Part shown: positions 12,457-16,459 of the stretch, piece after piece
Layout: each line of letters starts with the position of its first letter
Numbering within the stretch: position 1 is the stretch's first letter
Source: an uncultured Methanoregulaceae archaeon
GTDB taxonomy: Archaea; Halobacteriota; Methanomicrobia; Methanomicrobiales; Methanospirillaceae
Direction of reading: 5' to 3'
DNA: 64,000 bases
Assembly (NCBI GenBank): GCA_963737635.1
Contig: CAVTTL010000001.1
Coordinates: 672,001 to 736,000 of the forward strand
The notes under the pieces: model-generated
Told to the model about the DNA's origin: nothing
Database searches by the model: none
Seen by the model: only the letters and a program-made list of their open reading frames with translations
Program-made: the position numbers and the translations under genes

Positions 12457-13302
12457 TCAATTGATCTCAATCGAAACCTTCCCGCCACCCTTGCTTTTCT
12501 GGCCACCAAGTACAGTGATATTGTTCAATGCCGGGATGAGAATTTCATTGATTAATAGAAGCTGTGCATCTTGAACGGGTTTGGATGCAATTCCATCTAA
12601 CCAGAGATCGACTTTTTCTCCGCCGATAAACCGGGGTTTCCCAAATTCAAAATCGCTCTGTTTTACAACAATTTCCAAATCGCCTTTGAATATCGTCCCC
12701 GGTTTAACTTGTTCACCGGTAATAATCGCACCTTTGGCTGCTGTCCCGCTCTTCCGATCAATGCGGATACTTGTTTGGTCAATTCGATATTCACCGACTT
12801 CCGGCCAGAAATTGGGTGCACGAAGACATCCCATCAACCCAGCTGCACCGAAGAAATAGCAGACCGGGCAAAGACCAATCGAATTGTTATGGTTCTTCGG
12901 GATTTCAACTCTATTTTCTTCAATTTTTATCTCACAATTATGTTGACGATATTCAGATGGAGACAATTTCTTTTCAGCCAGTGATGGTCTTGATGCTGGA
13001 ATGCATGGTTTGAGAAAATCATCTGCGGGAGTCGCAAATTTTGACTTTAGATCGTTCTTCCTGGCAATAAGAATTTGTTCAACCTGATATCTGAATGCCC
13101 CTTTGAAACTAGATGCCGGAATCGCGGGTTTTCCATCTACAGAAAAGACCGGCCCCTTCTTTTCAGTGAGTGGGGAAGGCGTACCTCCGATATGGAGAAA
13201 TGATCCCTGCCTGACTGTAATTTTCAGAGGTATCTGGAATATTTGAATGATACCCTGATGCTTAATTTCAGGCAATGTGTTAATATGCTCTATGCTACTC
13301 AT
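12457..13302 (-). CDS. cas7: Type III Cas7 RAMP (Csm3-like)
   Basis: LHIGG, IPASSFKGAFR, CPVCYFFG, IRIDRKSGTA, G-rich loop LGGQKSKGGG. Confidence 0.9.
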   Translation of the reverse strand: MSSIEHINTLPEIKHQGIIQIFQIPLKITVRQGSFLHIGGTPSPLTEKKGPVFSVDGKPAIPASSFKGAFRYQVEQILIARKNDLKSKFATPADDFLKPCIPASRPSLAEKKLSPSEYRQHNCEIKIEENRVEIPKNHNNSIGLCPVCYFFGAAGLMGCLRAPNFWPEVGEYRIDQTSIRIDRKSGTAAKGAIITGEQVKPGTIFKGDLEIVVKQSDFEFGKPRFIGGEKVDLWLDGIASKPVQDAQLLLINEILIPALNNITVLGGQKSKGGGKVSIEIN

Positions 13303-13888
13303 TTTTAACCATCTCCGTATAATGCGTCAAAGAATTTACTTTTCGGATGAAGAATGCAATCTCAATGATGTCCTGTTTCATATCATACAACACCTTCACG
13401 TATTCAAAAATCTTCTTGAGCGCTGCTCTTTCAAATCTATTGGCCTTATCGATTTTGTATAAAAAATATTCCTCAACAATGGGAAAATTATGATTCTCAA
13501 TCACTTTTCCATAATCCTCCATATTCGGCAAATTGCATTTGATAATACTGAAGTGATCGAGTGTTAAAAACATTTGATTGATGGTGTAGGGTTTTTTAAT
13601 CAGCGATTCTTTTAATGCATTAGTTAATTCTCCCGCTTCCTGAATTGCGTTTTGTCGTTTAGAATCCCTTTCAGATTGTTGATATTCCTTCCGTAAGTCG
13701 CTGATTTTATCATCGATCTTCTTATTTACGCTAACAATGTCATTATTCTGAAATTTTGTTTTGAGATCCTTCCATTCGTTATGGTCAAAAATCTTGAATT
13801 TTATGAAGAAAATATCCGGGTCGTTTAATACACGTTTCATTACATCGTCCAGCGGGACACTAACAGTCATACTCATATTTCTCACCAA
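13295..13888 (-). CDS. Putative small subunit (Cas11-like), helical and charged
   Basis: Position between cas5 and cas7 with overlapping ends; no RAMP motifs; assigned by context only. Confidence 0.5.
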   Translation of the reverse strand: MVRNMSMTVSVPLDDVMKRVLNDPDIFFIKFKIFDHNEWKDLKTKFQNNDIVSVNKKIDDKISDLRKEYQQSERDSKRQNAIQEAGELTNALKESLIKKPYTINQMFLTLDHFSIIKCNLPNMEDYGKVIENHNFPIVEEYFLYKIDKANRFERAALKKIFEYVKVLYDMKQDIIEIAFFIRKVNSLTHYTEMVKNE

Positions 13889-14504
13889 TAAGGAGTTCAG
13901 GACCTTCTACAATACTATCTTCAAATAATGCTCTTTTATAGACTCCCCCAATTTTAGAAGTAGGATAGAATAAGTATCCATAACAAGGTTTTATAATTCT
14001 ATTGATGCCAAAGGAATGACATTCCTCTTCAAGGAGACGGCCATTCAAATAACCTGTAATTGTTTTCGGCTTGATTTCATCGATAAACGATAATTCACAT
14101 CTTCCAAATCCTTTGCTTTTCAGAGCACCAAGAACGATTTCTGTTTGTTTATTGGGGGGAAGATTCTCCGCTGCTTCATTTCTCAAGATGTAAATATCTC
14201 CAAGAACCGCTGCATTATATTGCGTCGGTTTGAGATATTCCAAAAAGATTGGCAATTTTGCAGTACCGGTAATTGCATCAAACGGTGCATAGGTAAAAAT
14301 GGCTTTTTCATATGTCCCTATTCTGAAAAAACCGATTGCCTGAATATCATGAAATCCAAAATATTCCTTGAAACACCCTTTCAGCGTGGATGTCGGAATA
14401 TTTTCAATACATGGCCGGAAAGTTCCCCCTTTGACCCGCTCTCCGATTGCAATTGCCGATGTACTTATGCAGTAATGAAGAAAACTGAGGGAGGCTTGGG
14501 TCAT
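13860..14504 (-). CDS. cas5: Type III Cas5-group RAMP
   Basis: IPTSTLKG motif and G-rich loop LGALKSKGFGR; directly after cas10 with an ATGA overlap. Confidence 0.75.
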   Translation of the reverse strand: MTQASLSFLHYCISTSAIAIGERVKGGTFRPCIENIPTSTLKGCFKEYFGFHDIQAIGFFRIGTYEKAIFTYAPFDAITGTAKLPIFLEYLKPTQYNAAVLGDIYILRNEAAENLPPNKQTEIVLGALKSKGFGRCELSFIDEIKPKTITGYLNGRLLEEECHSFGINRIIKPCYGYLFYPTSKIGGVYKRALFEDSIVEGPELLIGEKYEYDC

Positions 14505-16459
14505 GTACCTCTCACCTCATTGATCAACTTGTGAAAATCCAGAATCTGACGGATGGACAGCCCCTGCTGCATCAGGTCGGTTATGAAAGAGTAATGTGAG
14601 GGATCTTTCATTATTTCGAGTTGGACTACCATTTTACTTTGGGTTTTTTGATCAATATCCGACAACCGGTGAATCCAATGACTTGTTCTTTGATCGTCAT
14701 CTTGTAACTTTTTTCTAAGGGATCGATATTGTTGTACAGTAAGTGAAAGAAGACTGCTTCCTGCAATCTGAATGTTAATATCCTTCTTTGGTTTTGACAG
14801 GAATTCCCAGTGATTCCGGTAAGGGTATTTGGTACGGGCAATGCTCATGGAAAATTTGATAGGGGAACTGTCAAGACATTCTGGAAAATGAGCTTCCAGA
14901 AGGTCATAAAATAAATCAAGCACCGGCAGGATTTCTTCACTGGATTTGACTTTGAATATCCCGAATTCGTTATATCCTTCGATGGGGAAAAGAAATGAAT
15001 CATCCGTATATAGGGGTGATTGATCCCGTTGTTTTATGGTAAAGATCTGAGCGGAAAAATCATCCAGGAAAGATTGATAATCACGAATAAAACTCATTTG
15101 AACTGCAAGGGGCCTGAACATCTCTATCAGAATCTTCTTATCACCAGCTTGAACCGGTTGCATTGTAGGATGAGAATAGACATACTTTTTGAATAATGTA
15201 CGAATTGTTTCATCCAGATGTTGTTGATCAAGGGAGATTTTCAGCCATGCGGCCTTTACATCCTCTTCATCCCACTTGGCATAAACAGCTGCGGGCTCAC
15301 CAATTTCCCGAATGTTATAGCAATCATCACATAAATGCTCATGAATTTTGTCTTTGATCCTCTCTTGACCGGGTCTTACCTGGCAGGAATCACATAAGGG
15401 TGGTGAAATTTCTGCCGGAATTTCAGGACCGAGCCGTTTTTCAAATAATTTGAGATTTCTGTTAGTCCGTTTTTCATGAAATGTTTTGTATTGGCGACCT
15501 ATTGACGAAGTCAGGAGATTTAATTCCGCTTCCAGTTCCTTGTAATCGAGGATGAGACCGGAATCAATAAATGGTTTCATTAATATCTGGAGTGGAAGTT
15601 CCTCCTCTTTGGGAACAAAAAGACACAGAAAATCAGCCGTGGAGAATAAAACATAATCTCTCGTATTTTCATTTTCTGAAAATGCCTTGATTATATCAAT
15701 TCGTTTTTGGAATACATTGAGATCCTGAAGCCGTATCAATTCATTGGAGAATTTTACTTGACAAAAAACAAGACGGTAAATCCATTTTCCTTTTTGATTA
15801 ATCTGGTCAATTCTTCCCCCTGTCGCTTCGTTGATAGAGTTTATTTCATTGCCGCAGTAGATCAGCTTATTTTTTTGTTGATCAAACCAGGAATGTTTTT
15901 TCAAAATCCTGAATATCTTTCCAGTCAGATCTAAATGAGTGTATAGGTCGGTAATATTGAATGGTGCTGATTTATCCTCGGCGGTAAGCAGAAGATTGTC
16001 TTCATATGTTTTAAGAAATTCTTCGGAAAATGAACACTTATCAATAAAGCGAAACATTTCCTTTAATTTTTCTGGTGTATCAAATACAGCCCACTTTTTC
16101 CCGGCATTCATTTCATTTTGATAAAACTTTGGATTCCAAAGAACAAATATACCGTCGGATACTTGACCCTTTTTACCCCAAGTGCGGGAAATCGAGGCTG
16201 CGATTTCATCTGCGATATTCGTAAGAAGCACATCGGAAAGATGCTCTTTTGGGATTTTTTTGGTTGAAGAAAGAGATCTTATTTCATCGCTGAACTGCCC
16301 CCACCAACTCGGGGATGTAGGTGGGGCAATTCCAATTTGAGAAAAGTCAAAATTATGAAATGTATGGCCGGTAAATTGAATATTCTGATTTTTTAAAGAA
16401 TCTTTATCCACGAGCTTCCCGATATCATGCAGCTCTGCGATGAAAGCCCGATCATTCAT
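14501..16459 (-). CDS. cas10: Cas10-like large subunit with HD domain and degenerate Palm domains
   Basis: N-terminal LHDIGK, IADEIAASISR, EDKSAPFNITDLYTH, Zn finger CDSC...CDDC; no GGDD anywhere. Confidence 0.85.
   Translation of the reverse strand: MNDRAFIAELHDIGKLVDKDSLKNQNIQFTGHTFHNFDFSQIGIAPPTSPSWWGQFSDEIRSLSSTKKIPKEHLSDVLLTNIADEIAASISRTWGKKGQVSDGIFVLWNPKFYQNEMNAGKKWAVFDTPEKLKEMFRFIDKCSFSEEFLKTYEDNLLLTAEDKSAPFNITDLYTHLDLTGKIFRILKKHSWFDQQKNKLIYCGNEINSINEATGGRIDQINQKGKWIYRLVFCQVKFSNELIRLQDLNVFQKRIDIIKAFSENENTRDYVLFSTADFLCLFVPKEEELPLQILMKPFIDSGLILDYKELEAELNLLTSSIGRQYKTFHEKRTNRNLKLFEKRLGPEIPAEISPPLCDSCQVRPGQERIKDKIHEHLCDDCYNIREIGEPAAVYAKWDEEDVKAAWLKISLDQQHLDETIRTLFKKYVYSHPTMQPVQAGDKKILIEMFRPLAVQMSFIRDYQSFLDDFSAQIFTIKQRDQSPLYTDDSFLFPIEGYNEFGIFKVKSSEEILPVLDLFYDLLEAHFPECLDSSPIKFSMSIARTKYPYRNHWEFLSKPKKDINIQIAGSSLLSLTVQQYRSLRKKLQDDDQRTSHWIHRLSDIDQKTQSKMVVQLEIMKDPSHYSFITDLMQQGLSIRQILDFHKLINEVRGT

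Follow-up and report, generated by a model that had tools for sequence, protein, structure and literature searches.

A subtype III-F effector module within a type I-B locus

The 64,000-nt stretch analyzed here (hereafter, the window), which belongs to a contig of an uncultured Methanoregulaceae archaeon, contains a cassette of four overlapping genes on the minus strand (positions 12457–16459) that is almost certainly an effector module of CRISPR-Cas subtype III-F. The explanation that best accounts for the observations as a whole, and that we regard as likely, is that this module operates with CRISPR RNAs (crRNAs) shared with the adjacent type I-B system and uses the HD nuclease of its large subunit as its effector. 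The cassette comprises the following open reading frames (ORFs):

14501–16459, minus strand: cas10f, large subunit, 652 aa (ORF; N-terminal HD motif, zinc finger, two degenerate Palm domains and helical C-terminal domain)
13860–14504, minus strand: cas5f, 214 aa (ORF and PADLOC Cas5_IIIf, E 1.1e-54)
13295–13888, minus strand: cas11f, small subunit, 197 aa (ORF and PADLOC Cas11f, CAS-III-F effector_SS, E 2e-37, residues 13–194)
12457–13302, minus strand: cas7f, sole Csm3-like backbone subunit, 281 aa (PADLOC Cas7_IIIf, E 9.7e-77)

From cas10f to cas7f, the overlaps between successive ORFs measure 4, up to 29 and 8 nt. An initial annotation, made from the sequence alone, had described an overlapping operon of cas10, cas5, a 197-aa helical gene and cas7; all four ORFs were recovered at these coordinates, and their identities were obtained with PADLOC. 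Because of its match to the Cas11f profile, the 197-aa "helical gene" was recognized as the small subunit Cas11f. Each of the four proteins matched a PADLOC III-F profile over nearly its full length; for the large subunit, the Cas10a|Cas10f profile gave an E value of 2.1e-115, with residues 5–645 aligned to profile positions 3–581 of 585. The annotation had suggested a match to III-F, as found here, while treating the cassette as an unclassified, "type III-like" minimal effector, a description that the full-length III-F matches of all four proteins supersede.

By contrast with PADLOC, the Pfam and NCBIfam libraries do not cover III-F: together they missed three of the four proteins, with nothing for Cas5f or Cas11f and only DUF7685 for Cas10f, below threshold (17.6 bits vs a cut-off of 27). 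Cas7f matched the Pfam RAMPs family (PF03787, E 8.2e-15), and its scores against the Csx7, Csm3 and Cmr4 profiles were all under their cut-offs (NCBIfam Csm3, 20.5 bits vs 90). The gene set contains one Cas5 and a single Cas7, with no Csm5 or Cmr-type extra RAMPs, and the cassette has no cas6, csm5 or csm6 of its own, as had been noted initially.

Three other assignments were considered and rejected. Membership in III-H is contradicted by the separate 197-aa Cas11f gene. For IV-C, the PADLOC typeIV_Cas7 profile matched Cas7f with an E value of 0.0023, against 9.7e-77 for Cas7_IIIf, and no type IV Cas7 appeared among the top 50 structural matches described below. For III-A (Csm), the GGDD cyclase motif and the Csm3 catalytic Asp are missing, and the Csm3 score is far below its cut-off.

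The cassette is a member of III-F and not a new kind of system. The subtype has been named since 2020, when it was reportedly defined by Makarova et al. The novelty claimed for it initially does not stand, because a kept HD domain, a lost cyclase and a lack of effectors (PMC11229360), with DNA as the predicted target (PMC8036902), are the published description of III-F. In the dataset of PMC11229360, cyclase motifs were absent from all III-F members, HD was generally present and no effectors were listed (PMC11229360). What the present analysis adds is the set of family-wide residue counts, the correction of a frameshift in cas6, evidence for a horizontal origin and the recurrent operonic embedding of the cassette in type I loci.

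The large subunit keeps the HD motif and lacks the cyclase motif

The following motifs were read from the translation of Cas10f:

residues 10–15: LHDIGK
residues 272–277: FSTADF
residues 356–380: zinc finger CDSC...CDDC
residues 407–411: KISLD
residues 495–499: GYNEF

LHDIGK and the zinc finger are kept and GGDD is absent from the whole protein, in agreement with the initial annotation, whose FSTADF and KISLD segments were also located. For the alignment, 42 homologues (37–80% identity) were taken from 120 listed of the 149 found and combined with the window protein; the mean column identity of this family was 51%. Among the 43 sequences, H11 and D12 were each conserved in 42 and K15 in all. 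Other HD-domain residues were similarly constant (H32 in 39; D84, E161 and H175 in 43 each), as were the zinc-finger cysteines C356, C359, C377 and C380 (43/43 each).

None of the 43 Cas10f sequences has a GGDD-like motif at the Palm2 hairpin. Across the family this hairpin reads x-Y-x-E, with Y496 in 42 and E498 in 43 of the sequences, and the three GG[DE][DE]-like strings present in the alignment lie away from it, near residues 202 and 586. At the Palm1 hairpin, D275 is found in 32 of 43 sequences and is replaced by Ala in the window protein. In the AlphaFold2 model (predicted local distance difference test [pLDDT] 89.9; predicted template modelling score [pTM] 0.91), Palm2 forms a strand-hairpin-strand unit at residues 487–504, with the hairpin at G495-Y496-N497-E498. 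The top Protein Data Bank (PDB) matches of this model in Foldseek were Csm1 chains (E 4e-11, TM about 0.5).

For comparison, we collected eight canonical Csm1 proteins from the same phylum, and GGD[DE] was present in all eight. A global hhalign comparison of the Cas10f alignment with these eight gave no match. Local hhalign comparison gave three weak colinear hits (E 0.00074, 0.18 and 0.22), which are a hint only; they lie at HD motif I, with which residues 8–19 pair, at the zinc finger and at the strand after the hairpin. Sequence searches of the PDB with the Cas10f protein and its profile returned only motif-level matches, to the zinc finger and HD of III-D Cas10 (8bmw_K; E 0.043 and 6.8e-5). 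It is very probable that the III-F complex does not signal through cyclic oligoadenylate.

The backbone subunit lacks the catalytic Asp of Csm3

Residues 36–52 of Cas7f read LHIGGTPSPLTEKKGPV. In HMMER alignments to Csm3 (4qts_C) and III-D Cas7 (8bmw_G), Lys49 stands opposite the Asp of the T-D-N-P-V/I loop, which in Csm3 we take to be the catalytic residue. We aligned 39 family members, from 120 listed of the 306 found (mean column identity 66%), and position 49 was Lys in 35, Ser in two, Gln in one and Gly in one. Neither Asp nor Glu occurred there in any of the 39, so that the absence of the Cas7 catalytic Asp, pointed out in the initial annotation, extends to the aligned family. Of the flanking residues, K48 was found in 39/39 members.

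The AlphaFold2 model of Cas7f (pLDDT 82.1) had as its top Foldseek matches the Cas7 proteins of III-D, III-A and type VII. The top 50 contained no type IV or type I Cas7, and IV-C structures were probably not among the PDB entries searched. We expect with good confidence that Cas7f has no RNase activity.

One array and one cas6 at the locus

The initial annotation had placed the cassette within a type I-B locus, and every part of such a locus was identified in the window:

16460–16842, no strand: AT-rich intergenic region between the divergent cas10f and cas8b (sequence)
16843–18192, plus strand: cas8b (NCBIfam Cas8b1, 3.6e-31)
18189–19250, plus strand: cas7b (NCBIfam Cas7/Cst2, 2.2e-50)
19253–19912, plus strand: cas5b (NCBIfam Cas5b, 5.8e-42)
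19833–22082, plus strand: cas3 (NCBIfam cas3_core, 3.8e-74, and cas3_HD, 6.9e-19)
24824–25595, minus strand: cas6, in two frames in the window sequence (TIGR01877 halves; PF01881)
11027–11542, minus strand: cas4 (NCBIfam cas4, 2.5e-29)
9921–11057, minus strand: cas1 (NCBIfam Cas1b, 1.6e-124)
9650–9937, minus strand: cas2 (PADLOC Cas2b, 1.6e-28)
9464–9649, minus strand: putative leader (assigned from its location, with cas2 on one side and the first repeat on the other)
6270–9463, minus strand: CRISPR array of 48 exact 30-nt repeats and a degenerate terminal copy

The III-F cassette lies head to head with cas8b-cas7b-cas5b-cas3, and cas4-cas1-cas2, the leader and the array follow downstream on the minus strand. 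In minus-strand orientation, the repeat terminates in ATTGAAAT. Across the genome this repeat occurs 48 times in forward and never in reverse orientation, and nowhere else than in this array. Cas6 is present as a single copy in the genome, located beyond the far side of the I-B genes from the cassette. No second RAMP gene was found, PF03787 having one match in the whole genome (about 90% complete), and no CARF- or SAVED-like gene was present among the ORFs scanned in the locus.

Because the sole array of this repeat stands beside the cassette, and because the genome has one cas6, intact in other runs, and one RAMP match, we favor the view that the cassette shares its crRNAs with the I-B system. 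The repeats of related loci also favor this view: 13 loci of the III-F clade defined below have an array in the fetched stretch, and the repeat ends in ATTGAAA[C/G/T] in 10 of them (in two others it ends in ACTGAAA[G/C], and there was no consensus for one). Taken together, sharing of crRNAs with I-B is quite probable.

The integrity of the locus was assessed with contigs of four other public DNA runs from four studies, which span positions 12000–26000 and one of which may be the source of the window. The cassette (12457–16459) shows no indels in the contigs of all four runs and is not an assembly artefact; no RNA run was listed among those containing it. Outside the cassette, the window has an extra base at position 25152, absent in all three runs covering this cas6 site, and another at 16853, absent in 4/4 runs; after position 12162, a G is missing that is present in three of the four runs (it is also absent in the run X3), inside a 110-aa ORF. 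Without base 25152, cas6 is a single ORF of 256 aa. We had considered that cas6 might be a pseudogene and rejected this, the base at the frame split being missing from the three covering runs. The frameshift is an assembly indel, and the I-B system appears to be complete. Similarly, cas8b without base 16853 has an ATG start at 16755 and encodes 478 aa, its N-terminus being truncated by the window indel; since cas8b likely starts at 16755, the gap between cas10f and cas8b is probably about 295 nt. These indels suggest that homopolymer-type assembly errors occur elsewhere in the genome too.

Other features of the locus were as follows. The putative leader contains two 33-nt direct repeats (9481–9513 and 9545–9577) that are 94% alike. 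The four leader-proximal repeat spacings (9199–9463) are 60, 57, 54 and 64 nt, vs 65–73 nt elsewhere in the array, so that the newest spacers are only about 24–34 nt long; these could be real short acquisitions or an assembly error. One spacer occurs twice, in neighboring repeat-spacer units at 8798–8929 (100% and 98% identity over 66 nt). Between cas7f and cas4, two small overlapping ORFs of 88 and 110 aa (11623–12218, minus strand) have no Pfam or PADLOC hit and, judged by eye from the sequence, look like a small toxin-antitoxin pair. A scan for sigma-70 promoters gave 12 sites vs 12.3 expected, and such a scan is not applicable to an archaeal host. The interval between cas3 and cas6 holds toxin-antitoxin-like genes (22193–23911, minus strand):

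22193–22477, minus strand: PIN-domain ORF
22862–23248, minus strand: nucleotidyltransferase, MNT-like
23414–23644, minus strand: HicA, with an upstream 87-aa partner at 23648–23911

III-F cassettes recur within type I operons

A scan for relatives, with one genome per species, yielded 55 loci, and a tree was computed from the 39 large subunits with a length of 560 aa or more. In this tree the III-F clade comprises 25 rows (Shimodaira–Hasegawa-like approximate likelihood ratio test, 100) and includes the window Cas10f, which groups with rows from Atribacterota and Bathyarchaeia; the best identity among named genome records was 57%. More distant relatives from Methanoperedens (L030, L032, L037 and L047) and Chloroflexota (L039, L044 and L046) fall outside the clade and have no separate Cas11f match. 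Their Cas5 or Cas10 genes are longer, and they may represent III-H and IV-C2.

Complete cas10f-cas5f-cas11f-cas7f cassettes were found 20 times in other genomes. We used profiles from the Cas proteins of the window and of other loci to annotate their flanks (up to 10 kb), with a PADLOC check of three loci. For 15 of the 20 cassettes, the fetched flanks held at least one type I effector gene. Fifteen likewise had a cas gene of any kind no more than 300 nt away on the same strand, and for 12 a type I effector gene was located within this distance and on this strand. These results suggest that integration into type I operons is the usual situation for III-F; as an enrichment this is descriptive, the base rate for other type III subtypes lying outside the 20-cassette count.

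The point of insertion varied among loci. The cassette is located between cas5b and cas3 in L005 and L021, between cas7b and cas5b in L007 and L025, and after cas3 in L004; cas3 follows cas7f at a distance of 7–199 nt in L005, L021, L009 and L031. Six full-length rows that cluster in the tree (L011, L013, L015, L016, L018 and L019) have the cassette after cas3'' and before cas8, and in these six, L029 and L038 (8 loci), cas10f follows the end of cas3'' with a gap of 0 nt. The same eight bacterial loci have a split cas3'-cas3'' pair and a cas8 located 2–11 nt after cas7f, forming one packed operon with type I. Cas10f is split over two adjacent ORFs in L031, L033 and L038, and in L031 Cas7f and Cas3 are split too; in these metagenome-assembled genomes (MAGs) the split ORFs represent frameshifted genes or assembly errors.

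Five of the 20 cassettes had no type I effector gene in their flanks. The corresponding genomes contained Cas6 in 5/5 cases, Cas1 over the cut-off in 4/5 and Cas3 over the cut-off elsewhere in 3/5; one of them, the MAG G005, had Cas3 matches below threshold only.

Rarity and origin of the cassette

Among 1.84 billion cluster representatives, a search by profile returned 299 proteins at E ≤ 0.001 and 188 at E ≤ 1e-30, distant relatives included. With the Cas10f protein as the query, only the window's own copy was recovered from 61 genomes of its order (1/61); the 60 others, two of them from its genus, gave no match. The genome itself contains a full-length archaeal small-subunit (SSU) rRNA (1579 bits). 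G+C content was 0.39–0.47 over 12–24 kb, the region of the III-F and I-B effector genes, vs 0.52–0.59 in the flanks. This low G+C, together with the bacterial nearest relatives, points to horizontal acquisition of the cassette by the archaeon. Over cas4-cas1 the G+C content was 0.52, and the effector and adaptation parts of the locus may have different histories.

Proposed mechanism and alternative explanations

We propose that the I-B Cas6 would cut the shared pre-crRNA to leave an 8-nt 5' tag, AUUGAAAU, which Cas5f and Cas10f would bind, and that Cas7f and Cas11f would polymerise along the guide. The complex would produce no cyclic oligoadenylate, and its backbone would leave the bound strand uncut. 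Binding of a complementary target would then switch on the HD nuclease of Cas10f, which would degrade single-stranded DNA (ssDNA) and possibly RNA. The HD domain is, with reasonable confidence, the effector. The least certain step is the trigger, and by analogy with IV-C and I-D a DNA trigger (R-loop or ssDNA) has about an even chance of being correct. We lean toward DNA because the relatives IV-C and I-D bind double-stranded DNA (dsDNA), because published predictions name DNA and because the cassettes are wired into type I operons. The mechanism is further supported by analogy with IV-C, for which borrowed crRNAs and a target-activated HD are described (PMC13676074). Since the IV-C HD cleaves RNA as well as ssDNA (PMC13676074), the absence of RNA cutting proposed earlier for the complex may be limited to Cas7.

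The strongest alternative, to which we give a substantial but less than even chance, is a classical type III sensor, in which the complex would bind transcripts, the uncut RNA would keep it active and the HD domain would cut ssDNA at the transcription bubble. To our knowledge, every characterized type III system binds RNA. The best Foldseek matches also fit such a sensor, being Csm1 for Cas10f and III-D, III-A and type VII for Cas7f, all RNA-binding complexes, as do the lack of type IV and type I Cas7 in the top 50 and the separate, Csm2-like Cas11f. However, I-D binds dsDNA, the cassette lies inside type I operons, which target DNA, and adjoins cas3, and the lack of IV-C among the Foldseek matches is weak evidence given that its structures were probably not in the PDB set searched. 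The cyclase-dead, HD-bearing IV-C likewise binds dsDNA (PMC13676074), and published tables predict DNA as the target of III-F (PMC8036902).

It is also conceivable, and in our estimate improbable, that the complex is a second Cascade for the neighboring Cas3, which would bind DNA with I-B crRNAs and recruit Cas3 or hand the target over to it in a manner similar to I-D, instead of relying on the HD domain of Cas10f alone. Such a role would fit the gene order, namely the abutting cas3'' in eight loci, the cas3 7–199 nt after cas7f in four, the cassettes lying between cas7b and cas5b in L007 and L025, and the 12 of 20 cassettes with a co-directional type I effector gene within 300 nt. However, the nearly invariant HD residues point to Cas10f having its own nuclease, type I effector genes are missing from the flanks of five of the 20 cassettes (in G005, Cas3 is sub-threshold only), and the adjacency rate of other type III subtypes is outside the count.

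Several observations weigh against the explanation that we prefer, that of a III-F module with shared crRNAs and an HD effector. The structural neighbors of Cas7f and Cas10f all belong to RNA-targeting complexes, which favors an RNA trigger. The canonical GGDD was placed opposite residues 495–498 through the secondary structure of the model and the very weak hhalign hit (E 0.22). Acidic residues are kept at both Palm hairpins (E498, 43/43; D276, 42/43), further Palm acidic residues are D246 (43/43) and D411 (33/43), and in Cas7f the acidic E47 (38/39) lies two residues ahead of Lys49. Because of the conserved acidic residues at its hairpins, a residual ligand site in the Palm is conceivable, and judged from the sequence, Cas10f may retain a residual nucleotide-binding or catalytic site there. 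The search for arrays in the genome was limited to this one repeat, and the genome is only about 90% complete. With PF09651 (CARF), the search of the archaeon's own genome gave 0 matches, and the positive control also gave none in 14 genomes. No experiment, biochemistry or structure on III-F was found in the literature searched.

That the degenerate Palm keeps an enzymatic or nucleotide-binding role, with a non-canonical signal or an allosteric ligand, and that the system signals, is very improbable. The conserved E498, Y496, K407, D411, D246 and D276, at the hairpins and after the first strands, speak for such a role. Against it, the scanned ORFs of the locus include no CARF/SAVED-like gene, D275 of the Palm1 pair is Ala in the window protein, and no effectors are reported with any III-F (PMC11229360). 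Finally, a decaying, non-functional type III remnant would agree with the lack of GGDD, Cas7 Asp, cas6 and ancillary genes and is hardly credible in view of the four intact overlapping ORFs, which keep the same frame in the contigs of four runs, the 149 Cas10f and 306 Cas7f homologues with invariant HD and zinc-finger residues, and the conservation of the substituted positions themselves (Y496, 42/43; E498, 43/43; K48, 39/39; K49, 35/39).

Implications

Taken alone, the locus adds one unremarkable example to a rare subtype that already has a name and whose description in the literature searched is at the sequence level only. It provides a compact set for reconstitution, consisting of the four genes of the effector, a single cas6 and a single array of 48 repeats. 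Should a census bear out the frequent placement of III-F in type I operons, this would point to crRNAs, and perhaps Cas3, being shared obligately. We found no mention of the type I neighborhood of III-F loci in the literature searched, and the census tables of PMC12669027 and PMC11229360 may record it.

A broader possibility, which we consider unlikely, is that III-F, rather than standing alone as a type III system, is a satellite effector of I-B/I-A loci, a second Cascade-like complex that uses the same Cas6-made crRNAs, recognizes DNA and works with the neighboring Cas3. If this were true, III-F would represent a surviving stage between type III and two systems that target DNA, I-D and IV-C. 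Having intact I-B genes together with a single array and a single cas6, the window locus would lend itself naturally to testing the idea. III-F has been proposed as the ancestor of type IV/IV-C (PMC13676074). Because III-F is a proposed step from type III to IV-C, whether it senses RNA or DNA bears on the origins of DNA targeting in class 1.

Comparison with known systems

The III-A Csm complexes (e.g., 6ifn and 6o7e) provide the best structural matches of Cas10f and Cas7f, have the same subunit roles and align at HD motif I. Unlike the window cassette, they have GGDD in Csm1, the catalytic Asp in Csm3, Csm5, Csm6 and often cas6. I-D has in Cas10d an HD-bearing, cyclase-dead, Cas10-like large subunit that acts on DNA beside a Cas3 helicase. 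Its Cas5 and Cas7 families are Csc1 and Csc2, unlike those of III-F.

III-H was described in the 2025 classification as "distantly related to III-F"; its Palm is inactivated, its HD domain is present and its Cas7 is without the catalytic Asp (PMC12669027). III-H has no separate cas11, a diverged Cas11 taking the place of the C-terminal domain of Cas10 (PMC12669027), whereas Cas11f of the window is encoded by a separate gene.

Also comparable is IV-C1 of Pyrococcus abyssi and Thermococcus onnurineus, which has a cyclase-dead Cas10-like subunit with HD and zinc finger, Cas5, Cas7 and Cas11, a Cas7 without RNase activity and borrowed crRNAs (PMC13676074), the last two having probable equivalents in the window. 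In the 2026 study of IV-C, complexes with borrowed crRNAs recognized a GGG protospacer-adjacent motif and formed an R-loop, and the HD domain then cleaved ssDNA and RNA in a collateral manner (PMC13676074). Unlike the window cassette, IV-C loci mostly have no adjacent array, only a minority lie beside type I, and their mechanism has been shown experimentally (PMC13676074).

The closest counterpart is III-F itself. Its target is listed as "DNA?" in a 2021 review table, with Thermotoga lettingae TMO Tlet_0097-0100 as the representative (PMC8036902), and most III-F loci are without arrays according to the 2025 classification (PMC12669027). The window cassette has the same four-gene set, an HD domain, no cyclase motif and no cas6 or adaptation genes of its own. 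It shows no subtype-defining difference from III-F, and is divergent from, not co-directional with, the I-B effector genes beside it.

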